A DNA stretch of 46,667 nucleotides from Escherichia phage C1. The stretch lies in sequence record NC_054651.1. One strand, written 5' to 3'. The notes under the pieces are model-generated. The model did no database searches and was not told the DNA's origin. It saw only the letters and a list, made by a program, of their open reading frames with translations. Position 1 is the stretch's first letter; each line of letters starts with the position of its first letter. This document shows positions 1,156 to 44,743 of the stretch, in pieces. A program made the position numbers and the translations under genes.

Positions 1156-3186
1156 TTAGTTTTGGAGTTCAACCGTTGATTTATGTACAATACCCCGGGT
1201 CGCATCCCCACCTTGTAAGATGAACTTCATAAGTGTGGCGGATGGAACCTCTAATAATCCAAGTCCCTGTGAAAGACCTCCGCCACCAACTGCATAAGCT
1301 TCACATTTATGTAAGTTAAACCCAGTAGGCGCAGCAACCCATACCACTCCATTAGCATCAAGGGCTGATACTGTCCATGTGCTTTGTTCGTAAAATCCAT
1401 TACCTACGTAGTACCATCCAGGACCAGGCTTAAGGGCATCAGCCAGGCCATTGTTACGACAGTAGTCAATAACTCTTTTGTTTGCGCGGCTTACTTTAAG
1501 ATAGTTAGTACATGCTACATTCCCACCGTTGAAAAACAATCTATTGCCTGACAATGCTGAATACAGATATTTATCTACAGACTCAAGATTGTTAAATGAA
1601 TTGGCAGATGCTGACATATTCATGCCATTTACAGTAATGTCATTACCTGTATTATTGAATGAAAAAATTGCTCTTGTTGCTGCTGGTATTGTAACTTCAG
1701 TTTGAGAATATTTGTTGGCAATTGTGTATCTTGCTGTATGTGCCCCGCTTGAGTTCATGTATGTAATGCTATAAACAAATCCAAAATTTGCAGTTATGTT
1801 TTTGTTGTTTTGGTCAGCAAGGAACAGTAACCCATTATAGAATTCAACCCCTAGTTCAAATGTGAGGTACTCACAATTGCTTCCCAGCTGTACTGCAATT
1901 GGTGTTTCGTTTGCACTATCCCAGATAGCTCCCTCGGTTGAGTTAAGAACTTCTACATAACCACGGAAAAAACCATACTGACATTTGTCAAGATAAATTG
2001 GGAATGGACATCCTCCTATCTCAACTCGCAGATCAAATGAAGTAGTTGGACCTGTAACGCCAACAGGAACTGTGTGTTCTGGTGTTGGTGATACAGGGTC
2101 AAAATAGATCCCTTTATGACAACTCAAAACACGTATAGTACCGACCATCCCCCAACATCCGTACCCATATACACCGAACTCTCCGCCCCACACGCTTACA
2201 TCGACTTTTGCTTTGATCGCATCATTCATATGAAGGCAAATTGACAGGTCACCTTTAACAGCAGACATCCATGCAACATTTGACCACTCAAGAGAAAAAC
2301 CCTGGAATACAACACCATTTACAAACCCATTTGTTGATGCTGTATCAGATGCTTTTTTTACTTTCACAATGCAGATATCGCCAATATTTGTTGATGATGT
2401 TACTGATGGTTTATCTTTAATTATCATTGTCCCATGAAAATGATCAGACTGCGGGCCTGCAATAAAGCAACTATTAATATCCAGCATCAATGTGTCGAGA
2501 GATGAGAATCTGTATTTCTTCAACGTTGGGCATCTTACTGAGCACTTTAAACTACGTGCTACTGTGTCTGCTTTTTGCATTGCGGCCCAGTCAATTGACT
2601 GAGATAAACTTGTTGCAAGCGGATACACCAATTGCGCATCAGTTAGAGTGGTGTATTTTTCTGATAATAGATGAAGAGTTCCATCTCCTATTGCTCCAAA
2701 CTGCTCTGGTGTTACATAATATAATGCCTGAGATAAATTACCAGATTGCTGAACGCCTACTCTAGTTGGGTCTACTAATGGTTCTCCGGGTGAATTTAAT
2801 TCACCCCTTAAAACTGCATCACCGACACTAACCCATGCTCCTAATTTAACACCGCCAGTACTATCTGGAGTTGAACCAGCAGGCACTATTTTAGGTAATT
2901 CACCATCCCATCGGTAATATTCTCCAGTAGCTTCATAACGCAGAGTCTGATTGGGAAGCGTCAGTGCCGCACCATCTTCGAAGCTATCCATTGTGATGTA
3001 GCCATAATTACGGATAGCCTCTTCTGCTGTGTACTGAAATCCAGCAATTGTCCAGCGGCGTACGCCGAAGCGATCAGTATAGTAATGCGCATCAGATGTC
3101 ACTACCTCATCAATCTTCCCGGCGTTAAACTTGAGGTCGCGCGGGTCTTCTGACGGAATTGGTTTATTAGTTGGTGTGGTAGCCAT
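1156..3186 (-). CDS. tailspike / tail fiber with pectate-lyase-like beta-helix domain (putative depolymerase)
   Basis: 676 aa, last gene of tail module; motif YYVTPEQFGAIGDG resembles the N-terminal signature of pectate-lyase superfamily tailspikes. Confidence 0.65.
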   Translation of the reverse strand: MATTPTNKPIPSEDPRDLKFNAGKIDEVVTSDAHYYTDRFGVRRWTIAGFQYTAEEAIRNYGYITMDSFEDGAALTLPNQTLRYEATGEYYRWDGELPKIVPAGSTPDSTGGVKLGAWVSVGDAVLRGELNSPGEPLVDPTRVGVQQSGNLSQALYYVTPEQFGAIGDGTLHLLSEKYTTLTDAQLVYPLATSLSQSIDWAAMQKADTVARSLKCSVRCPTLKKYRFSSLDTLMLDINSCFIAGPQSDHFHGTMIIKDKPSVTSSTNIGDICIVKVKKASDTASTNGFVNGVVFQGFSLEWSNVAWMSAVKGDLSICLHMNDAIKAKVDVSVWGGEFGVYGYGCWGMVGTIRVLSCHKGIYFDPVSPTPEHTVPVGVTGPTTSFDLRVEIGGCPFPIYLDKCQYGFFRGYVEVLNSTEGAIWDSANETPIAVQLGSNCEYLTFELGVEFYNGLLFLADQNNKNITANFGFVYSITYMNSSGAHTARYTIANKYSQTEVTIPAATRAIFSFNNTGNDITVNGMNMSASANSFNNLESVDKYLYSALSGNRLFFNGGNVACTNYLKVSRANKRVIDYCRNNGLADALKPGPGWYYVGNGFYEQSTWTVSALDANGVVWVAAPTGFNLHKCEAYAVGGGGLSQGLGLLEVPSATLMKFILQGGDATRGIVHKSTVELQN

Positions 3187-3225
3187 TATAATAAATGCTC
3201 CTTTGTGAATTTGATGTATATTGTA

Positions 3226-7026
<3,801 letters not shown>

Positions 7027-13262: not shown

Positions 13263-13291
13263 AAAGCCGCTTCATGCGGCTTTATTTATTT
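13263..13291. terminator. rho-independent terminator
   Basis: AAAGCCGC-ttcat-GCGGCTTT hairpin followed by TTTATTTATTT on plus strand; also immediately 3' of minus-strand gene 13286..13660. Confidence 0.6.
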
Positions 13292-13660
13292 CACAACCCG
13301 CAAAAGCAACTCATGTACGGGCCGCTTCTCTTCCGTCAGCATCGGCCTACCGAGCGGAGCCTGCAACTGGATGTAGTTAACGCACGAATCAATCGGATGC
13401 GTCTTGATGTATTCGATAATTTCATTGGCTTTAGCATCAACATCAGCAACGTTGTACTGGCCTTGCTTGCCAACAACATACAGAGAGAAATAGAAGTCAC
13501 CGCCGAGTCCATTCATCACCTGCGTGCCGCCGTTGGATTGCAGGACAATAAATTGCTCACTGCCATCTCCAGTGTCATTCCAGAACTGCAATTGCGAAGT
13601 CCAGCCATCATACAATCCAGCATCCTGAAGATATGTATCAACCAGTTCAAGCATGTTCAC
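13286..13660 (-). CDS. head-tail joining protein (tail terminator/neck position)
   Basis: 124 aa; last of four compact, overlapping small genes between capsid and major tail genes. Confidence 0.4.
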   Translation of the reverse strand: MNMLELVDTYLQDAGLYDGWTSQLQFWNDTGDGSEQFIVLQSNGGTQVMNGLGGDFYFSLYVVGKQGQYNVADVDAKANEIIEYIKTHPIDSCVNYIQLQAPLGRPMLTEEKRPVHELLLRVVK

Positions 13661-14055
13661 AGTTTCATCTCCTTTTTAATCACGCTATCAACAAGGTCTT
13701 TTGTGCGTTGCGCTGCTTTGGTCAGAAATTGCGGTTCACCGCCCGGAGACCAGTACGTGCCATTGCCGTTGCTGCGTGGTTTGCCTGTAAGTTTGCCACT
13801 GGCATTGTGGACGTACAGCGCATATTTTGCAGAGTAGCCAACTTTGCCAGTGATCCGCGTTCCGTTAACTTCCACGGTATCAAACTGGCTGTTAATCAGC
13901 GTCGATGTATCAATTGGCGTCAACGTGGCTGATTCAGTGCGGATGATGTATGTCGCCGACTTCAGGGCGCGCACAGCTTTCGTGGCAATTATCTCATCCA
14001 CAATCTGCGATGTTCTTTCTACGGCCTGCCGGATGCCTCTTAATTTCGCTGGCAT
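13657..14055 (-). CDS. head-tail joining protein (tail completion position)
   Basis: 132 aa; start overlaps upstream stop; synteny. Confidence 0.4.
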   Translation of the reverse strand: MPAKLRGIRQAVERTSQIVDEIIATKAVRALKSATYIIRTESATLTPIDTSTLINSQFDTVEVNGTRITGKVGYSAKYALYVHNASGKLTGKPRSNGNGTYWSPGGEPQFLTKAAQRTKDLVDSVIKKEMKL

Positions 14056-14402
14056 TATGTCACCAGCGCAAAGTCAGGCGGCTCAGCACGATTGAACGTA
14101 TTGCCGTAATTAATCACATTCAGAATCTGGTTTGCACCAGCCGCCAGCGGGTCAGCTTCTGTCGCCGTGCCAATCATGATGTAATCACCTACCTTGGCGT
14201 CAGTGTATTCCGTCCAGAAGGTATTTTTCTGCACAATCTCATTACCTTTCGCATCAGTCGATACATCATCATTAAAGCCATAATCGCACATGATGCTCAC
14301 TGGCGCGCCAAAAGTCGGCTTGCCGTACTTGTCAGTGCCGCTTTTGTGCCAGATTGTGCATGGTTGCGTGTAGGAAAACCGAGCCAGTGAAGTCATTTGC
14401 AT
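14055..14402 (-). CDS. head-tail joining protein (head closure position)
   Basis: 115 aa; synteny. Confidence 0.4.
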   Translation of the reverse strand: MQMTSLARFSYTQPCTIWHKSGTDKYGKPTFGAPVSIMCDYGFNDDVSTDAKGNEIVQKNTFWTEYTDAKVGDYIMIGTATEADPLAAGANQILNVINYGNTFNRAEPPDFALVT

Positions 14403-14821
14403 TTACTCCCACGCACAACCGCAAACCACGGCTTGCCGCCGCCGTCAGGGTCTTCCACCAAATCGCCAGTGCATCCTGCTGTATCCAGTAGTTTCATCTG
14501 ATTGTACAGCGCCACCCACGGCTTACTGCCATACGAGAATGATTGTGATGCACCAGATGGTGCGCTCTGGCTGGTAACGTAGCGCCCGGCGGTATTTGCG
14601 CTAATCAGAATTGAAGCCCACAGCATGATCGCATTTTGTCGGCATTCATCATTTGGGTAGCTCAGCTCAAGGCATTCACTGATTGACGCCACAAGGCACA
14701 GAATGCCAGACGCATCCGTTGTGGTGATAGTCATCCCGCGCGACGCCATCTGACTGACCAGCTCTTCAGGTGTTGGTGCTGTCATTTCTCTTTGACTCCC
14801 GTACTTTCCACCACATCTCAA
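14393..14821 (-). CDS. head-tail connector/adaptor protein (putative)
   Basis: ORF-track ORF; likely true start at MTAPTPEE (about 14785); synteny. Confidence 0.4.
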   Translation of the reverse strand: MRCGGKYGSQREMTAPTPEELVSQMASRGMTITTTDASGILCLVASISECLELSYPNDECRQNAIMLWASILISANTAGRYVTSQSAPSGASQSFSYGSKPWVALYNQMKLLDTAGCTGDLVEDPDGGGKPWFAVVRGSKCK

Positions 14822-15050
14822 ACAGGTTCTTTATTACCAGCGACAGTGCACCGAGGATTGACGCCACTGCCGCCCACTCCGTCAGGCTGTGTGGAATCAT
14901 AGCCTCAAAATAAGACTGCGTGACAGGTGTTTGCTCTGCAACTTTCAGGCCGATGCCAGTACCAATAGAGGCATATCCAGCCTTGTCAATCACCTGTCCC
15001 GTCGTCCCGCTTATAACCTGCTCTGCGGCCTGCCTTAGTGTTTCGTTCAT
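14766..15050 (-). CDS. small protein with C-terminal transmembrane helix
   Basis: 94 aa; hydrophobic stretch WAAVASILGALSLVIKNLF then basic tail. Confidence 0.4.
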   Translation of the reverse strand: MNETLRQAAEQVISGTTGQVIDKAGYASIGTGIGLKVAEQTPVTQSYFEAMIPHSLTEWAAVASILGALSLVIKNLFEMWWKVRESKRNDSTNT

Positions 15051-15082
15051 TGCGAGTCTCGCTGATGATATGTTTCCAGCAC

Positions 15083-15523
15083 TTATAGATTTGAATCAGC
15101 GAAAAAACGATGGCGACCACGCCAAGAACAATGTCCAATTTCGCCGCCCCATTTAAAAGTGATGGAAAGGATGAACAGATGGATGCCGATAATAATAAAT
15201 GCGTACTGCGCATGAAGCGGCGTTTCTACAGGCGTGATAAATTCCCATACGAATGACTCTATCGCTACCAGCCATTCGTAAAGGCTCATCGTCAGCACGC
15301 AGAGCGCCATCTTTGTACTTTTGCGCAGCGCAATAGCTGGAAACAACCAGATCATAGACTGCGCAAGGTAATACAGATATTCGGCGGGAAATGAATCAGC
15401 AAGCACCCATCCAAGATACACAGACATCGCCATTGCCGGAATGAACACCAGAAACGCAACCATGCCCGTGCAGGCAAAACCCAGCACATACATGATCATG
15501 ATGGCAATGTCTGCGCCGAACAT
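15083..15523 (-). CDS. polytopic inner-membrane protein, unknown function
   Basis: 146 aa with about 4 hydrophobic helices. Confidence 0.45.
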   Translation of the reverse strand: MFGADIAIMIMYVLGFACTGMVAFLVFIPAMAMSVYLGWVLADSFPAEYLYYLAQSMIWLFPAIALRKSTKMALCVLTMSLYEWLVAIESFVWEFITPVETPLHAQYAFIIIGIHLFILSITFKWGGEIGHCSWRGRHRFFADSNL

Positions 15524-15525
15524 TA

Positions 15526-15642
15526 TTTCTTACCGCGCGATGGTGAGCGGGTGGAACCGTTTGGCTTCACTGCGCCAGCTTTGCCGCCAGCTTTGGTATT
15601 GCCAGTGGCGCGTGAGCGAGACGGCGAATTGGTTGAACCCAT
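15526..15642 (-). CDS. small basic Ser/Gly-rich protein
   Basis: 39 aa ORF below track threshold; strong SD (AGGAG) before ATG; stop overlaps next ATG. Confidence 0.3.
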
Positions 15643-15689
15643 GTTTAAATCTCCTGTTGTTTGATTAGCATGATTTTAGCATATTCCTG

Positions 15690-15718
15690 TTGACGTAGAT
15701 TAGTGTGGCGTTTATAGT
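15690..15718 (+). promoter_or_regulatory. sigma70-type promoter TTGACG-17-TATAGT for ParB/MTase/clamp cassette
   Basis: Hexamers with 17 bp spacer; contains TGACGTAGATT and a second TGACGTAGAAAC copy just downstream. Confidence 0.55.
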
Positions 15719-15741
15719 TAGTGACGTAGAAACAACAATAA

Positions 15742-15933
15742 ATGTTAGAGGTGATGGAAATGGAAGGTAAAACAGAAGTTGTGGTTGTTGATGTTTTTTA
15801 TCAAGCATCAGACGAAGGCATTCCAGCTCACTGGTGCTGCCAGTTTATTCGCGATGGATGGACTGGTTATGAATATTTTGATAACTCAGAAGATGCATAT
15901 AACTATGCTTACTCACATGGATTTCAAGGATAA
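15742..15933 (+). CDS. hypothetical small acidic protein
   Basis: 63 aa ORF, first gene after promoter; likely start at internal ATG near 15757. Confidence 0.4.
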   Translation: MLEVMEMEGKTEVVVVDVFYQASDEGIPAHWCCQFIRDGWTGYEYFDNSEDAYNYAYSHGFQG

Positions 15934-15936
15934 ACA

Positions 15937-16746
15937 ATGAAAACACTAAGCAAAATCTATTCAGACAAAGAAACGCGCAACGGTATCGCTGTCAATAAAA
16001 CCTATCTCGTGCCAGTTGAGCAAATCTATCTTGAGCCTGGATACAACATCCGCGAAGCCGATGAACAGCATGTGGAATATTTCGCGCAGTGCTGGGAATC
16101 AGGTCAGCCACTGCCAGCATTAACAGTTATTCCTGACGAGAAGGGAATCCGCATTCTTGATGGTCAACATCGCTACCTCGGCGCATTGCGTGCCATTGAG
16201 CGTGGCGCACCAATCGTTCGTATTGAGTGTAAGGATTTCACTGGCGATGAGGCGGACAAAATTGCCTTCATGGTGTCATCCAGTCAGGGGAAGCAACTTG
16301 ACCCGTTTGAGCGCGCAAAGGCTTACACACGACTGAAGGGTTTTGGCTGGACGAATGAAGAAATAGCCAAGAAGGTAGGTCGTTCAGTATCTGACGTGCA
16401 GATGCATCTGTCACTGGGTGATGTGCCTGCGGAAGTAAAAGCGCGAATCAGTGCCGGGCAAATCAGCTATGCAAATGCCGTAGCAGTAACTCGCGAGCAT
16501 GGCGATGATGCGGTAAAAGTTATCGACGAGGCAGTCGAAGAAGCTAAAGCACAAGGCAAAGACAAGGTCACAGCCAAAGTGCTGAAGTCGAAAAAGATTA
16601 AGCCAATAGACCGCCTGATTGAGTTATTGAAGCCAGCAGACCATGTGATTCTTCCTGCTGGTCATGTAGTGGCAGAGGATGAGGAGTTTATCCAGATTCC
16701 TGTTGCTGATATTCACGAGGTTATGGCAATTCTGGAGAAGATGTGA
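15937..16746 (+). CDS. ParB-like nuclease domain protein
   Basis: 269 aa; ParB/Srx N-terminal domain pattern including ILDGQHRYLGALRA; stop overlaps downstream start. Confidence 0.7.
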   Translation: MKTLSKIYSDKETRNGIAVNKTYLVPVEQIYLEPGYNIREADEQHVEYFAQCWESGQPLPALTVIPDEKGIRILDGQHRYLGALRAIERGAPIVRIECKDFTGDEADKIAFMVSSSQGKQLDPFERAKAYTRLKGFGWTNEEIAKKVGRSVSDVQMHLSLGDVPAEVKARISAGQISYANAVAVTREHGDDAVKVIDEAVEEAKAQGKDKVTAKVLKSKKIKPIDRLIELLKPADHVILPAGHVVAEDEEFIQIPVADIHEVMAILEKM

Positions 16747-17626
16747 TGATTATAAATGAAGACGTGAAATTAATTCATGGCGATTGCCTGGAAGTCATGA
16801 AGTCTATTCCTTACAGTAGCGTTGATTTGATTTTGTGCGATTTGCCGTATGGGACGACACGCAACAAGTGGGATAGCGTTATAGAACTGCAGTCGATGTG
16901 GGCCGAGTACAAGCGCATTTCCCGTGGCGCTATCGTGCTCACAGCGCAGGCGCCATTCGACAAGATTCTTGGAGCATCAAATATCGGCATGTTTCGATAT
17001 GAGTGGATCTGGCAAAAAACGAAAGCAACAGGTCACTTGAACGCAAAGATTCAGCCAATGAAAAACCATGAAAACGTCCTTGTTTTTACAAGTCACTACC
17101 AGTGTACAACCCACAGGGACTGGTAAGAAAAGCAGTTCCAACCATAAGAAAGGGTGGAAACAACGGTACGAACTACGGCAAATCAGACAAGGACGCGATT
17201 CAGGAATTTGAGAACTACCCGCGCTCAATCATTGCGATACCAAGCGAAGGCAGAACCATTCACCCAACCCAGAAGCCAGTCGCGCTGATGGAGTACCTTG
17301 TCCGCACCTACACCAACGAAGGCGACGTGGTTATGGATAACTGCATGGGTAGTGGCACGACCGGAGTCGCCTGCGTGAACACTGGTCGTCGTTTCATCGG
17401 AATAGAAAAAGATGATGAGTATTTTGAAATAGCAAAAAAAAAGGATTTTAGGATGAACGCCGAACAATTCATCGAAAAACAACTCCGCGCCAAGCTGCCT
17501 GACATCGACCAGATGGCAGTTGATGCGGCGATTCAGTATTACAAGCGCAATCAGAGCGCAAAGAAGGGTGGCATTTTTGAAGAATGCCTGAAGGTTGCAA
17601 GGCAACACATGATTAAGGTGAAGTGA
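16743..17626 (+). pseudogene. N6-adenine DNA methyltransferase (Dam-like, beta class), split by a frameshift near 17072..17126
   Basis: ORF 16743..17126 carries LILCDLPYG (motif IV-like) and ends ...[19 protein letters not shown]; overlapping ORF in another frame (17102..17626) carries HPTQKP and [12 protein letters not shown] (motif I, AdoMet binding). Confidence 0.7.
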
Positions 17627-18162
17627 TGAAACTAAAAATAAGCAAACTATTACTTGAATCAGCATTAATCTTTCAGGCTCGCAACGATGTGCGTTACTAC
17701 CTGAATGGAATCTGCTTTATGACTAATGGTCGCATTGCGTCAACTGACGGTCATCGCGCATTCATTGGTGGAAGCCATGACAATAAGCTGACAGAAAATG
17801 TGATCATCAAGATTGGCAAATCTCCAACAAAACGCTATGAGTACGCCATTATTGATACCAAGTCGAAAATTGCGACGTATCATGATGAAGCTGGCGCGAT
17901 GGTTGGTGCTGGTATCTGCGAAGAGATTGATGGCCGATTTCCTGATATTGATCGCGTAATACCAAATGAAACGAAAGCAGCAGAGGAAATCGGCTTTAAT
18001 GCTGGTTATCTCGTGGATATCGAGAAAGTGGCGAAGCTGTTTAATCCTAAATTCTGTGGCGTTAAGTTTGAATTGAATGGGAATACAAATGCCGCCGCTT
18101 GCTGCCTTAATGCGCCATCTGGCGAGACTGCGAAGATTGTTGTTATGCCTATGCGACTATAG
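17623..18162 (+). CDS. truncated DnaN-like sliding-clamp protein (beta-clamp homolog fragment)
   Basis: 179 aa; blocks [37 protein letters not shown] and C-terminal VVMPMRL match remembered E. coli DnaN blocks; about half the length of DnaN. Confidence 0.7.
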
Positions 18163-18166
18163 CAAT

Positions 18167-18196
18167 AAAAAGCCCCGGAAGGGGCTTTTCTTTTAT
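18167..18196. terminator. bidirectional rho-independent terminator
   Basis: AGCCCC-ggaa-GGGGCT hairpin with A-run upstream and T-run downstream between convergent genes. Confidence 0.7.
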
Positions 18197-19056
18197 CACG
18201 CCAGATAAGTATCATCCTCAAACCACGAGACATACGCATTGATATTCTGCGCCGCAGTATCCAGTGATGTTATGCGAAGCAAATACGTCGTATTTGGTGT
18301 CATGATAATCTGCTCGCCGAGTTTCGCCTGCGAGTTACCCTGCCCCTGATTAGATGCATTCCCTTCGCTATACGTTGCTGCAACCGTTAGCTGTCCAATG
18401 TTTGTCACGGTAGCGCCAGTAAGTAACTGCGCAGTAGCTGCCTGCGGCGTTATGTCGTTTGGGTTGTTAATCTCTGCCGCCGTACCGCCAGTGGCAACCG
18501 CGCCGCGATAGATTGATGCAACAACACCTTTCCCTGTATAACCAATAATGCGCTGGTTGAATATCACCTGCTTTGTTCCGGTGATAAAGATGCTGTCAAG
18601 GTTTGAGCCGCCAGCAACATCAGTTACTCTACGCGACGCAGTGAACAGCTTGCCTTGCTTATTGGCGCGTTCAATATATGACTGCGTGGTAATATCGCTT
18701 AACGCCACATCCGGCTGAAGGTTTACTATCGATTGCGGAGACACACCAGCTCGCCAGACCGAAACGCGCAGCGAACTTACCGCTGCTGGCAATTCAGTTT
18801 TGATTATCTTCAGGCGCAATGCCACACCGTAATAATTATTATTGTTGACGTCAATCCAGTAATTTCCAGACTCAAAAGGTGACACCTTCACGGACACGGT
18901 GCCGCTAACCAGTGGCGTGTATGCACCAGATGAATCAAGTGGCATCACGTTAACCTGTAGCGCAGTCCAGTCAGCGGACATCAGCTCATCAAGCATCACC
19001 TCGCCATTATCACGCGTGGTGAATATGTCGTATCTTACAGCCATAGAAACCCCCAA
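18196..19056 (-). CDS. putative virion structural protein (unknown role)
   Basis: 286 aa, Thr/Ala/Gly-rich; bracketed by strong terminators just downstream of capsid gene. Confidence 0.4.
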   Translation of the reverse strand: MGVSMAVRYDIFTTRDNGEVMLDELMSADWTALQVNVMPLDSSGAYTPLVSGTVSVKVSPFESGNYWIDVNNNNYYGVALRLKIIKTELPAAVSSLRVSVWRAGVSPQSIVNLQPDVALSDITTQSYIERANKQGKLFTASRRVTDVAGGSNLDSIFITGTKQVIFNQRIIGYTGKGVVASIYRGAVATGGTAAEINNPNDITPQAATAQLLTGATVTNIGQLTVAATYSEGNASNQGQGNSQAKLGEQIIMTPNTTYLLRITSLDTAAQNINAYVSWFEDDTYLA

Positions 19057-19082
19057 TAAAAAACCCGCATGATGCGGGTTTA
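19047..19082 (-). terminator. rho-independent terminator
   Basis: AACCCGCATGATGCGGGTT hairpin with T-run on minus strand. Confidence 0.65.
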
Positions 19083-19084
19083 GT

Positions 19085-19282
19085 TTACTCTGCTTTCTTT
19101 TTCTTTGTCGTCTTTTCTTGTGGGGTTGCGACTTCGAAAGATTTTTCCAGTTCTGGCATGACGCGCAGCTTTGACATCAGATGATCAGCTGGTTCGGTAA
19201 TCACCTCGCCAAGCTGCAATTCACGAATCTTGCCTTTCTCCTTAACAAAGATTCCGCGTGCGATGACTTCGTATTTAGCCAT
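19085..19282 (-). CDS. hypothetical small protein, Lys-rich C-terminus
   Basis: 65 aa ORF between two terminators. Confidence 0.4.
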   Translation of the reverse strand: MAKYEVIARGIFVKEKGKIRELQLGEVITEPADHLMSKLRVMPELEKSFEVATPQEKTTKKKKAE

Positions 19283-19297
19283 TATTCACCTCAATTC

Positions 19298-19326
19298 ATA
19301 AAGGGGCTTTCGCCCCTTTTTTTTAT
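19298..19326. terminator. rho-independent terminator after capsid gene
   Basis: AAAGGGGC-tttc-GCCCCTTT hairpin followed by T8. Confidence 0.7.
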
Positions 19327-20396
19327 TACACCGGAGTTTGCGTGCCGTAGCCGTTGAATACTCTGGATTTGCCAGTGGCATCCTTGCGAATTTGTAGACC
19401 AAAAGCCGACCACACGAGGAAGTTAAAGTTATCGTGCGGGTTAGCACGGGCAGCCGCATAGGTGGAAACAGGCTGAGCAACACGCGGACGGATGTACATG
19501 TCGTTGCGAACATAGCCAACAAAATGGTTGCCGGTCAGCAGGAAGTTGGTGCCAATCTTGCCGATGCGACCGTTACCGAACTGCGTGATGTACTGCTCAA
19601 CCGTGCCGCCTTTGAAGCCTGCTGCATCAGAATACGGACGCATGAAGCTGCGACGCACTGCCGGGGAAACCCACAGAGTCACCTGCTCAAATACGTTCTG
19701 CGCATCCAGAATAGCCTGGAAATCCTGATTGAAGAAGGTCACGATTTCATCTGGCGTTGCAGTTTGCAGGTCGATATTCAGACCGCCGGAAGCATTCAGG
19801 TTAACCTGAATGGTGTTCGGGTGGTTGGTGATACCGTAACCAGTGTAAACGCCGTTCACGTTCAGAGTCTGGTCGCCAGTCAGCAGATACTGTGCCATAT
19901 CGGAACGCAGGTTAAAGGTAACGTTAGCCTGATCGTCCAGTAGAGGGTCGAAACCTTCAGACTGCATACCCAGCAGTTCGCGCCATTCGCGGCTGTAGCC
20001 AGTCTTGAAGATTGGAATCACATCGCCAGTGTAATCGTAGCGAGTTTTATCCAAATCTTCCGGCTCCTGACCAGACAGAGTGCGGACGACCTTGCCAGCA
20101 TCGGAAGCAATGCGGCTGATTGCCACGGTCTTACCAATGTTGATGTTTGCCGCGATACCCATCAGGTCAGCCATCATGTCCTGACCAGCTTCGTTGCGGA
20201 AAACGCGGGTGGTAACGTTATCCACGTCGCGCCAGTAATCTTTCGTTACCAGTGCGGTGGCGTTAACGCCGTATGTTTTCGCCAGCTCAGCTTCTGCGTT
20301 GCAGAATACCTTGCGGTCGATGGTCAGATGTTTCCACTGGTCAGCCACCACTGCGGAGTTGGCTACCAGGTCTTTGGTAAAAATAATCTTTTCCAT
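19326..20396 (-). CDS. major capsid protein (putative)
   Basis: 356 aa; position downstream of scaffold and decoration-like genes and followed by a strong terminator. Confidence 0.55.
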   Translation of the reverse strand: MEKIIFTKDLVANSAVVADQWKHLTIDRKVFCNAEAELAKTYGVNATALVTKDYWRDVDNVTTRVFRNEAGQDMMADLMGIAANINIGKTVAISRIASDAGKVVRTLSGQEPEDLDKTRYDYTGDVIPIFKTGYSREWRELLGMQSEGFDPLLDDQANVTFNLRSDMAQYLLTGDQTLNVNGVYTGYGITNHPNTIQVNLNASGGLNIDLQTATPDEIVTFFNQDFQAILDAQNVFEQVTLWVSPAVRRSFMRPYSDAAGFKGGTVEQYITQFGNGRIGKIGTNFLLTGNHFVGYVRNDMYIRPRVAQPVSTYAAARANPHDNFNFLVWSAFGLQIRKDATGKSRVFNGYGTQTPV

Positions 20397-20398
20397 TA

Positions 20399-22278
<1,880 letters not shown>

Positions 22279-24664: not shown

Positions 24665-24892
24665 TCAACCGTTACTGGTTGAACTATAAACCAACGCAGA
24701 TATAAGTTCGTCAGCCTTTTCACGACCTGCAACCTCAGCTTCAAGCGCCAGTGAGCACATGGCAGTTTCCACAAACTTAATGGTATCCTCGCGAACGTTA
24801 AGGATTTCCATAACCTCGCGAACTTCCTTCTGGTATCTCGCTGCTATTTCTTTGTATCGCATTTCCACATCACCTTTTTCGTTGTGGTACAA
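24665..24892 (-). CDS. hypothetical protein
   Basis: 75 aa ORF (non-ATG first codon in track); likely ATG start about 24862 after AAGGTG. Confidence 0.35.
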   Translation of the reverse strand: MYHNEKGDVEMRYKEIAARYQKEVREVMEILNVREDTIKFVETAMCSLALEAEVAGREKADELISALVYSSTSNG

Positions 24893-24962
24893 TCTACGTC
24901 AATAAGTATTGACTAAATGATGTAGATTGGTCAACAATAATTTTCGAAAAGGAGTAGTAAAT

Positions 24963-27639: not shown

Positions 27640-27700
27640 TAATTCTATCACAATGACTATTGACGTAGATTGAGTGGTGGTGCATAGTATCTACATCAAA
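27640..27700. promoter_or_regulatory. divergent promoter region: minus-strand extended -10 (TGTGATAGAAT) for lysis operon; plus-strand TTGACG-17-CATAGT; inverted GTAGAT repeats
   Basis: Read from sequence; TTGACGTAGAT and ATCTACATCAA form an 11 bp inverted repeat about 18 bp apart. Confidence 0.5.
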
Positions 27701-27716
27701 TAGAGAGGTGGTGAAC

Positions 27717-37811: not shown

Positions 37812-38323
37812 TTATTGCACCTCGTAAGAGTTAGTGATTGCCTTAATGCGGCGACGATACCATTGCATGATGTGTTCGTTATGCCAGTTGCTCATTTTGT
37901 TACCCCTTATAACCTGATTTAGAAACTGCCACTGAGATAATGATGAATGCCACGATAATCAGACTGGCGATAAGTTCGAATGTTGCTCCTGTCATTTACT
38001 TAACCCATACGCTGAGATTAAAGCCTGCATTGCCGCGTTCCAGAATGCTTCCGCAGGAATGCTATTGTTTGCGCGGTTAACTGCAATGCGTGCCATAGCT
38101 TGTGCATCTTCAAATTCTTCACGGTCTTTGATTTTCATTATGCGTACCTGTTATATGAAAGTTTTTTACATGCGTAATATTGTTTTTCTGCATAAGCAAA
38201 GGTCTTTCCAGTCTTCATCATCGCATCAATGAATTTGTGCGCGTCACCCTTTGACTCGCAATACAGAGCTATTGCGTATTTGGTAGGTTTCATCTCTTCA
38301 CCCTCGTTTGTTCCGATGAGTTC

Positions 38324-38352
38324 AATCTACATCAACGACGATTCTACGTCAA
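38324..38352 (-). promoter_or_regulatory. sigma70-type promoter (TTGACG-17-TAGATT) for leftward operon
   Basis: Read on minus strand; two copies of the GTAGAWT motif. Confidence 0.5.
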
Positions 38353-44291: not shown

Positions 44292-44706
44292 ACTAAGTGA
44301 TAATGTTTTTGTGTTTGATGATGGCTACCGTGGCAAGTGCCCGCTTGAGGATTCCGACCTGATAGCGTTCAAGTGGTGGATGGATTACCAGTTTCCTGAT
44401 GTGCTGTGGTTCCATCCGTCTCAGGAGACCAAAAGCAACTCAGTGCAGCATCTGGCATCGCGCGCAAGGAAAGGTGTAAGGTCAGGGGTGTCTGATGTGA
44501 TAATCCTGACGCCTGGTGTGAGGTGGTATAAAGCGACGATAGAGTTGAAGCGGCATGATTCAACGCTTAGCAAATGGCAACCTGGACAGATACCGTTTCT
44601 CAACGATAGCGCCAGCGCTGGTGCATTCTCTGCGGTGGCGTGTGGACTCGACCAGATAAAGATTGCAGTGTTGACGTATTTTGGCTTGCCTTTTGATGTG
44701 GGTTGA
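44266..44706 (+). CDS. VRR-NUC-like PD-(D/E)XK nuclease
   Basis: Track ORF 44251..44706; GTG after AGGAG; blocks GVSDVIILTPG and ATIELKR fit D...E-x-K nuclease core. Confidence 0.5.
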   Translation: MKKRFKQHELSDNVFVFDDGYRGKCPLEDSDLIAFKWWMDYQFPDVLWFHPSQETKSNSVQHLASRARKGVRSGVSDVIILTPGVRWYKATIELKRHDSTLSKWQPGQIPFLNDSASAGAFSAVACGLDQIKIAVLTYFGLPFDVG

Positions 44707-44714
44707 TGTAGATT
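44686..44714 (+). promoter_or_regulatory. sigma70-type promoter TTGCCT-17-TAGATT
   Basis: Contains TGATGTAGATTC motif; upstream of exonuclease gene. Confidence 0.4.
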
Positions 44715-44743
44715 CATTTACGTGATGATGAGTGAGGTTAACA

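Follow-up and report, generated by a model that had tools for sequence, protein, structure and literature searches.

The element considered here is a block of plus-strand genes that extends from position 15690 to about position 18190 of a stretch of DNA of 46,667 base pairs (bp), referred to in the following as the window. The complete genome record of Escherichia phage S192 (ON239132.1) matches this window with 100% identity as its rotated reverse complement, and the phage is termed S192 below. Its relatives are siphophages of the ViII-E1, Sf11, swi2 and IME207 type from Salmonella, Escherichia, Shigella and Klebsiella. The open reading frames (ORFs) of the block, located between 15742 and 18162, encode a small acidic protein, a ParB-like protein, a methyltransferase in two pieces, a small basic protein and a truncated homologue of the beta clamp (DnaN), and they are flanked on either side by minus-strand genes, i.e., connector/membrane genes at 13286-15523 and head genes at 18196-20866. 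An earlier reading of the window, the original prediction, had described a self-contained plus-strand transcription unit amid minus-strand head and connector genes, and ORF layout, promoter and terminator are in full agreement with this description. The accompanying statement that the cassette is inserted in the morphogenesis block is not borne out in the sense of a recent insertion, since every relative examined carries the block at this very place in its genome. No copy of the cassette was detected in 5,426 complete E. coli genomes or in 72,556 plasmids. Its sequence and annotation are already public, and it recurs in about 200 deposited phage genomes.

A consensus scan located a promoter for the block at 15690-15735 on the plus strand (10 of 12 matches), with the hexamers TTGACG (15690-15695) and TATAGT (15713-15718) separated by 17 nucleotides (nt), and this is the sole plus-strand sigma-70-like match between 15000 and 19000. 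An operator-like motif, TGACGTAGA, is present in two direct copies at 15691-15701 and 15722-15735 on either side of the -10 box, such that the -35 hexamer sits inside a 12-nt element, TTGACGTAGATT, and the second copy, TGACGTAGAAACAA, is found just 3' of the -10 box. For comparison, we assembled 79 viral loci encoding a relative of the ParB-like protein and searched them with the S192 cassette proteins. Both motif copies together with TATAGT are kept in 70 of these related loci, as are both promoter hexamers, while the spacer between the motif copies is variable, a pattern that constitutes the phylogenetic footprint of a real, regulated promoter. The presence of an own promoter, TTGACG-17-TATAGT, had been predicted correctly. 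When the genome was searched for parS-like repeats, the asymmetric motif TGAYGTAGA(T/A) emerged, which is also found, as a single copy or as a direct or inverted pair, at about five other promoter-like sites ahead of non-structural genes. The motif search placed these other sites at 24902(-) and 24917(+) within region 24891-24928, at 27660(+) within 27660-27702, at 38352(-) within about 38320-38352 and at 44703(+) within 44690-44715. Judged from the shared motif, the cassette promoter belongs to a promoter class that is phage-wide and probably early, and TGAYGTAGA has the appearance of an operator for an early regulon that extends over the phage genome.

At the distal end of the block, a predicted intrinsic terminator hairpin (18168-18189, both strands) features a 9-bp stem with five G-C pairs. 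It folds with -15.0 and -16.6 kcal/mol on the two strands (z about -4.2) and has U-runs on both sides, which renders a two-way terminator, as anticipated in the original prediction, plausible. The plus-strand operon plausibly shares the hairpin with the head gene at 18196-19056, which converges on it from the minus strand. If working, termination on the minus strand at 18168-18189 would stop late head transcripts (19056 to 18196) before the connector genes at positions up to 15523; in the gap of 218 nt that lies upstream of 15523 (15524-15741), a search for sigma-70-like promoters on the minus strand gave no match. An Rfam scan of 14800-18600 retrieved no RNA family, and PADLOC returned generic methyltransferase matches only for the cassette.

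The list of genes on which the original prediction was based is incomplete because a separate gene was missed inside the second methyltransferase ORF. This gene (17453-17626, plus strand) encodes a conserved basic protein of 57 amino acids (aa) with an isoelectric point (pI) of 9.5, which matches phrog_4439 (E=6e-21) over residues 118-174, i.e., the last 57 residues, of the second methyltransferase ORF. Its stop codon overlaps the start codon of the clamp gene in the sequence TGATG (17624-17628), and the clamp gene, where present, is almost always located directly 3' of the 57-aa gene. The components of the cassette differ strongly in their distribution among the 79 related loci: 71 carry the 57-aa gene and 55 the truncated clamp, as compared to four loci with an S192-type methyltransferase and two with the small acidic protein. 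Between the ParB-like and the 57-aa gene lie as few as 3 nt and as many as 1451 nt, and the variable slots carry an acidic anti-restriction protein (phrog_14587), a C5 cytosine methylase (phrog_363), a methylase-endonuclease VII fusion, an HNH endonuclease and many small proteins of unknown function. In Sf11 and swi2, small unknown genes replace the methyltransferase, and Klebsiella phage VLCpiS13f possesses the ParB-like gene, an intact methyltransferase and the 57-aa gene without a clamp gene. The cassette therefore consists of a conserved backbone (ParB-like gene, 57-aa gene and usually the truncated clamp) and of swappable cargo, and as a whole it is an ordinary conserved early operon with swappable anti-restriction cargo. 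The association with anti-restriction that had been put forward earlier is reasonable.

The leader slot of S192 contains the small acidic protein, encoded on the plus strand by an ORF of 63 codons at 15742-15933 (phrog_37822, E=5e-18). The likely start is ATG at 15760, which is preceded by GAGGTG and yields a product of 57 aa with a pI of 4.1. The two related loci that share the gene do so with 97% and 87% identity, and in other relatives the acidic anti-restriction protein phrog_14587 is found in this slot instead. In the GenBank record, the frame given for the first cassette gene is wrong (15791-15940 rather than 15742/15760-15933), an assessment that follows from family matches, as no family match was obtained for the annotated frame. 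The acidic gene and the ParB-like gene are 3 nt apart and do not overlap. The overlapping stops and starts stated for the whole cassette thus apply to the ParB-like and methyltransferase genes, which overlap at 16743-16746, and to the 57-aa and clamp genes, and not to the first gene pair.

In the middle slot, a methyltransferase is encoded that had been regarded as one gene and as Dam-like. Its frame is split by indels in a T5 and an A9 run into two ORFs, both on the plus strand: an N-terminal fragment (16743-17126; phrog_12862, phrog_67 and a weak PF01555 match) that carries motif IV as DLPY (residues 33-36), and a C-terminal fragment of the same enzyme (17072-17452; PF01555, E=7e-24) that carries motif I for binding of S-adenosylmethionine (SAM), CMGSGTT. 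The frame of the C-terminal fragment is open from 17072, its first start codon is GTG at 17102 and the ORF is listed as 17102-17626. The reading frame breaks in the T5 run (17083-17087), and the A9 run (17434-17442) fuses the C-terminal fragment in frame with the following 57-aa gene. The gene was reconstructed against five homologues, which stem from related loci and Klebsiella phages. Upon addition of one T at T5 the sequence becomes collinear with intact homologues, and upon removal of one A at A9 it regains the ending of the homologues, AK(K/N)RILG followed by the stop codon; both corrections together result in a collinear protein of 237 aa with a canonical ATGA overlap to the next gene. 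In the four full-length homologues compared (217-256 aa), both halves are in one frame that ends with RILG or RIMKS. As an amino-methyltransferase the enzyme had been recognized correctly, but it is not Dam-like: it belongs to the PF01555 beta class (N6-adenine or N4-cytosine) with motif IV before motif I, the named enzymes that it matches best are of the CcrM and YhdJ types, the repaired protein matches MTase_II in PADLOC (E=6e-83), and neither Pfam nor NCBIfam yielded a match to Dam or MethyltransfD12. The DLPY variant is shared with several homologues and is no sign of decay.

As deduced from the split frame, the S192 methyltransferase probably has no activity or works, at best, as an enzyme in two pieces. 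It is possible, albeit rather doubtful, that the gene is intact in the real phage and that both indels are sequencing errors; the product would then be a working orphan methylase and still an independent cargo. That both breaks fall into homopolymers, and that the two corrections restore the collinear protein and the canonical overlap, is in line with such errors. On the other hand, S192 showed no other frame breaks when compared with all swi2 ORFs of at least 100 aa, so that the T5 and A9 indels resemble genuine lesions more closely than they do general noise in the sequence, and truncated copies also exist in metagenomic loci. The latter copies (164-166 aa) belong to the same methyltransferase family and occupy the same slot in loci L057 (5813-6313) and L085 (5807 onward). 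Locus L085 ends about 490 nt past the ParB-like gene, and its ORF may run off the fetched sequence; if it does not, the truncated copies may reflect repeated decay of methyltransferase cargo or poor assemblies. A programmed -1 frameshift at T5, in which a P-site slip from UUU to UUU would restore the enzyme, was considered and rejected, as neither a canonical heptamer nor a stimulatory structure is present and the homologues are encoded in a single frame.

The last gene of the operon (17626-18162, plus strand) encodes a truncated beta-clamp homologue of 178 aa. It matches phrog_3007 (E=1.9e-62) with residues 2-179 aligned to profile positions 1-186 of 190, and E. coli beta (E=3e-13; 29% identity overall) with residues 8-114 aligned to residues 136-249, i.e., domain II and connector. 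The C-terminal 60 residues contain IGFNxxY and VVMPMRL, which are hallmarks of the end of domain III. DnaN proteins proper comprise three homologous domains in about 366 aa and score above the family cut-off; the phage protein is half as long, its score with TIGR00663 (DnaN) is 37.6 bits as compared to a cut-off of 137.65, and the Pfam matches beta_2 and beta_3 remain below gathering. A first structure model, for which only close relatives were aligned, reached a predicted local distance difference test (pLDDT) value of 55.7 and was discarded. The AlphaFold2 model calculated from a diverse alignment (pLDDT 96.6, predicted template modeling score 0.91) consists of one clamp domain with a single long helix and one beta-alpha-beta-beta-beta half-domain, and has two long helices in total. 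In Foldseek searches, the best matches in the PDB were beta clamps (template modeling (TM) score 0.63 on the query), and the viral library (BFVD) contained many phage proteins of 180-210 aa with TM scores of 0.75-0.89. According to model and alignment, the protein has no domain I, domain II has lost its second (channel) helix and domain III is reduced to one half, and a normal head-to-tail ring can therefore not form.

The part that appears to have been retained is the hydrophobic peptide-binding pocket (subsites I and II, domains II/III). Of the 18 residues published as the peptide-binding pocket of the beta clamp (PMC11139829), 16 are identical between S192 and E. coli. Across 97 family members with 27-50% identity, mean conservation is 0.73 for pocket residues versus 0.38 elsewhere (Mann-Whitney p about 1e-6), and ten of the 15 most conserved positions of the family are pocket residues. 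The family is large, with 193 representative clusters at E<1e-10 and 297 phage records from many genera. Among the 150 best representatives listed, two are of full length (373 aa), most others have about 165-245 aa and the rest are shorter fragments, and of 109 viral-contig ORFs with a DVRYYLNG motif, 95 comprise 150-300 aa. The designation as a DnaN fragment was thus appropriate with regard to kinship; it was misleading in that the protein is not debris and represents a large phage family of truncated clamps of about 180 aa. In PHROGs and RefSeq, phrog_3007 is labeled 'RusA-like Holliday junction resolvase', e.g., in the records of Sf11, swi2, IME207, Bcep781, Skarpretter and X29. Since sequence and fold matches are all to beta clamps, this label is a propagated misannotation; no Pfam match of the truncated clamp to a RusA family was obtained at E<0.1.

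Taken together, we regard the cassette as an accessory operon of the early type, ancestral to the ViII-E1/Sf11/swi2-like siphophages, in which the clamp serves as a pocket for host clamp-binding proteins, and assign a probability of roughly 0.6 to this interpretation. One sigma-70 promoter with two operator-like motif copies would drive the genes for the ParB/KorB-like, the 57-aa and usually the truncated clamp protein up to the two-way terminator. Hypervariable slots around this backbone collect anti-restriction cargo (small acidic proteins, orphan adenine or cytosine methylases) as well as selfish homing endonucleases; in S192 the leader slot is filled by the acidic protein of 57-63 aa and the middle slot by a beta-class orphan methyltransferase that is split by a -1 (T5) and a +1 (A9) indel. 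The parts presumably act separately and not as one machine, the cargo genes operating independently against host restriction. The truncated clamp would not encircle DNA as beta does and could instead provide a soluble pocket that captures host clamp-binding proteins. The replication and recombination genes of S192, swi2 and Sf11 specify a primase, a DUF3987 helicase, an SNF2-type helicase, ERF, an exonuclease, SSB and VRR-NUC, no DNA polymerase gene is present in the gene complement of any of the three, and this group must therefore replicate with the host polymerase. In a phage without polymerase, the likeliest use of the pocket would be to recruit or redirect host DNA polymerase III (Pol III) or clamp-loader components to phage DNA, and alternatively it might titrate host repair or regulatory clamp partners. 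No strict clamp-binding motif occurs in the S192 proteins and loose matches remain at chance level, which makes host proteins the likeliest ligands. As a tentative generalization from conservation and model, the 178-aa protein may even represent a widespread and so far uncharacterised class of host-takeover factors, each a free-standing beta-clamp pocket, stripped of all that encircling DNA would require, that would bring Pol III or clamp-loader subunits to the replisome of a polymerase-less phage or draw partners for repair, translesion synthesis or regulation away from the host clamp.

Several observations weigh against this interpretation. An early notion that truncated clamps are confined to polymerase-less phages was ruled out by phage EP23, which has a family A polymerase of its own, and Pol III recruitment can therefore not be the universal role. 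The argument for the pocket is derived from a monomer model and from conservation at the sequence level, and a phage that depends on the host replisome could itself be harmed by a general decoy for clamp partners. The clamp gene is missing from about a quarter of the close relatives and is therefore dispensable. A methylase is encoded near the truncated clamp in Skarpretter, X29, ST22 and TC7, which leaves room for a loose functional link, and the two methyltransferase indels could still be sequencing errors.

The beta ring is a head-to-tail dimer held together via domains I and III, with twelve helices lining the DNA channel. It might be argued that the 178-aa protein is nevertheless a true processivity clamp that forms a new type of ring, for example a tetramer with six domain-equivalents, for host Pol III or the phage replisome. 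The protein is a real beta homologue with an intact polymerase-binding pocket, its gene is often found among replication and recombination genes, and four times 1.5 domains equal the six domains of the beta dimer, which is an argument of arithmetic only. We consider a new ring unlikely, since domain I, which provides half of the beta dimer interface, is absent, and since 1.5 beta domains call for three long helices and the model has only two, which would leave the DNA-facing lining incomplete. Moreover, a three-unit repeat would not be able to reproduce the alternating within- and between-domain junctions of the clamp ring, and the gene is dispensable in the close relatives mentioned above.

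According to the original prediction, ParB-like protein, methyltransferase and clamp fragment could form one functional system that tethers methylation or nicking to replicating DNA. The three genes are indeed adjacent and translationally coupled in S192. In addition, some unrelated phages, i.e., Skarpretter, Vibrio phage X29, Enterobacter phage ST22 and Pseudomonas phage TC7, encode a methylase one to three genes away from a truncated clamp, and in TC7 (locus L096, 910-5729) a stretch of 5 kb contains a C5 cytosine methylase, a truncated clamp and a ParB-like gene, a proximity of all three gene types that was seen in no other unrelated phage. The distribution of the genes largely refutes such a system. 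The methyltransferase is limited to four of the 79 related loci, as compared to 55 for the clamp, and is elsewhere replaced by unrelated cargo or nothing, VLCpiS13f combines the ParB-like gene and an intact methyltransferase with the absence of the clamp gene, and truncated clamps exist without ParB-like protein or methylase. In EP23 (Dhillonvirus), Bcep781, Snoke (Kagunavirus) and Proteus phage RS10pmA, the truncated clamp is a lone opposite-strand gene inside structural blocks and no ParB-like gene accompanies it (L008 (EP23), 4007-4519; L010 (Bcep781), 3998-4579; L011 (Snoke), 3962-4483; L093 (RS10pmA), 2998-3495). In these four unrelated phages, the lone clamp genes often have their own two-way terminator and lie in head/tail blocks, mirroring the placement in S192.

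The neighbourhood of truncated clamps was further evaluated for 43 lineages (55%-identity clusters) from a motif scan of viral contigs, by comparing 148 ORFs within two positions on either side of the clamp gene with 148 control ORFs at least five positions away. Among the 25 families listed for the near set, there was neither a ParB family nor a recurrent methylase; a C5 methylase occurred once near the clamp and just as often in the distant control. The near set included DnaB, D5_N, Prim-Pol, RecT, family A polymerase and endonuclease VII, once each, and the far set comprised lysis, terminase and regulator families. With DNA-metabolism families in its vicinity and no recurrent partner, the truncated clamp is therefore best described as a DNA-metabolism gene without a fixed partner. 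The methyltransferase of S192 is furthermore frameshifted, and the truncated clamp, as modeled, would be devoid of the parts needed to ride on DNA. The comparison with related phages, which had been proposed as a check when the system was predicted, thus found the genes dispersed and turned out against a single system, which we now deem highly improbable.

The conserved anchor of the operon is the ParB-like gene (15937-16746, plus strand), the product of which is a ParB/Noc/KorB-like DNA-binding protein of 269 aa (phrog_1033, E=1e-90) with an N-terminal ParB/Srx-type domain followed by a helix-turn-helix domain. It matches HTH_ParB (PF17762; E=2.5e-11, 44.1 bits at a cut-off of 22.6) and KorB (PF08535; E=8e-6, 26.1 bits at a cut-off of 22.3) as well as Spo0J from T. 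thermophilus (1vz0; E=7e-13), and was also aligned with ParB, Noc and KorB structures over the N-terminal and helix-turn-helix domains. There was no match to PF02195 at E<0.1, and TIGR00180 remained below its cut-off. At the position of the cytidine triphosphate (CTP) motif, the phage protein has GQHRYL where 1vz0 has GERRYR (ParB consensus GERRxR). Many Salmonella and E. coli phages share the ParB-like protein with 98-100% identity and their truncated clamps with only about 90%, and the ParB-like protein is therefore under strong constraint. Of the earlier designation as a ParB-like nuclease-domain protein, the first half is corroborated by HTH_ParB and KorB and the second is unsupported, as no nuclease family was matched and the sole hint was a weak, sub-threshold match to a DGQHR domain (E=0.007). 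From its domains, we read it as an orphan ParB/KorB-like protein with a predicted DNA-binding or regulatory function.

Membership in the ParB family and the occurrence of phage-length contigs with the truncated clamp of this group in some bacterial assemblies could be taken to indicate that the protein mediates partition of a plasmid-like carrier state and that the operon is a maintenance module. This is hardly credible: no ParA is annotated among the 78 genes of the genome, the genome search yielded no palindromic parS-like repeats, the CTP motif is degenerate, the cassette is missing from the complete E. coli genomes and plasmids searched, and neither an integrase nor a repressor module is annotated in the genome. 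Next to no probability, finally, is left for the clamp gene being a functionless, decaying remnant of a captured host dnaN, as might be thought from its shortness and its score below the DnaN cut-off, because family-wide purifying selection already refutes it: hundreds of diverged clusters have a uniform length of about 165-245 aa, the pocket residues are nearly invariant despite 29% identity to E. coli beta, the fold is predicted with high confidence and the gene is translationally coupled to the upstream gene.

The main remaining interest of the operon lies in the truncated clamp, which is the only part worth experiment. In the literature searched, no functional work on it was found, only routine annotation as 'DNA polymerase III beta subunit'. 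In databases, the protein is labeled either as a DNA polymerase III subunit or, wrongly, as RusA resolvase, and its identification as a clamp homologue would correct a widespread annotation error. A clamp family that lost the ring-forming parts and kept the pocket under strong selection offers a direct and cheaply testable hypothesis, and bears on the question how polymerase-less phages engage or interfere with the host replisome.

Outside the operon, small hydrophobic proteins are encoded by two minus-strand genes at 15083-15523 and 14766-15050, which belong to the connector block and lie just upstream of the cassette. For their counterparts in Sf11 and swi2, the annotations read lipoprotein and membrane protein, an unusual cargo for a head-to-tail cluster.

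Compared with known systems, the operon resembles the accessory or anti-defence hotspots of phages, in which a conserved promoter and backbone likewise surround slots for anti-restriction, methylase and homing-endonuclease genes. It differs from such hotspots in that it resides on the opposite strand inside a head-to-connector block and not at a genome end. With ParB/Spo0J, Noc and KorB, which are CTP-dependent DNA-sliding clamps and repressors, the phage protein shares the ParB/Srx domain and the HTH_ParB/KorB domain, and like KorB it could regulate several promoters, for which the repeated operator-like motif at early promoters would be the putative site. Differences concern the replacement of GERRxR by GQHRYL, the absence of a ParA partner and the absence of palindromic parS-type repeats from the phage, the candidate motif being asymmetric. 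The methyltransferase agrees with PF01555 orphan methyltransferases of the CcrM/M.HinfI/YhdJ type in the order of motifs IV and I and in its matches to Type II/orphan profiles, and, as is the case for phage orphan methyltransferases, the S192 copy sits in an early operon beside anti-restriction genes. It deviates from these enzymes by DLPY instead of DPPY and by the two indels that split the copy, and it is distinct from Dam, which belongs to the alpha class with motif I before motif IV.

With E. coli beta, the truncated clamp has in common the homology to domain II, the C-terminal pocket motifs and nearly all of the pocket residues, while it comprises 1.5 instead of three domains, with domain III halved and domain II missing its second helix. 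In relation to DnaN, it lies far below the family cut-off, is encoded by phages and forms a large family of its own, phrog_3007. A short in-frame form of E. coli beta, beta*, which consists of domains II-III, was described in the 1996 literature; the phage protein likewise lacks domain I but has 1.5 domains instead of two. GriR, an extra copy of DnaN that protects griselimycin producers, sets a precedent for an additional clamp homologue that acts via the peptide pocket and is not the main replicative clamp, with the difference that GriR is a full-length bacterial ring clamp and the phage protein comprises 1.5 domains.

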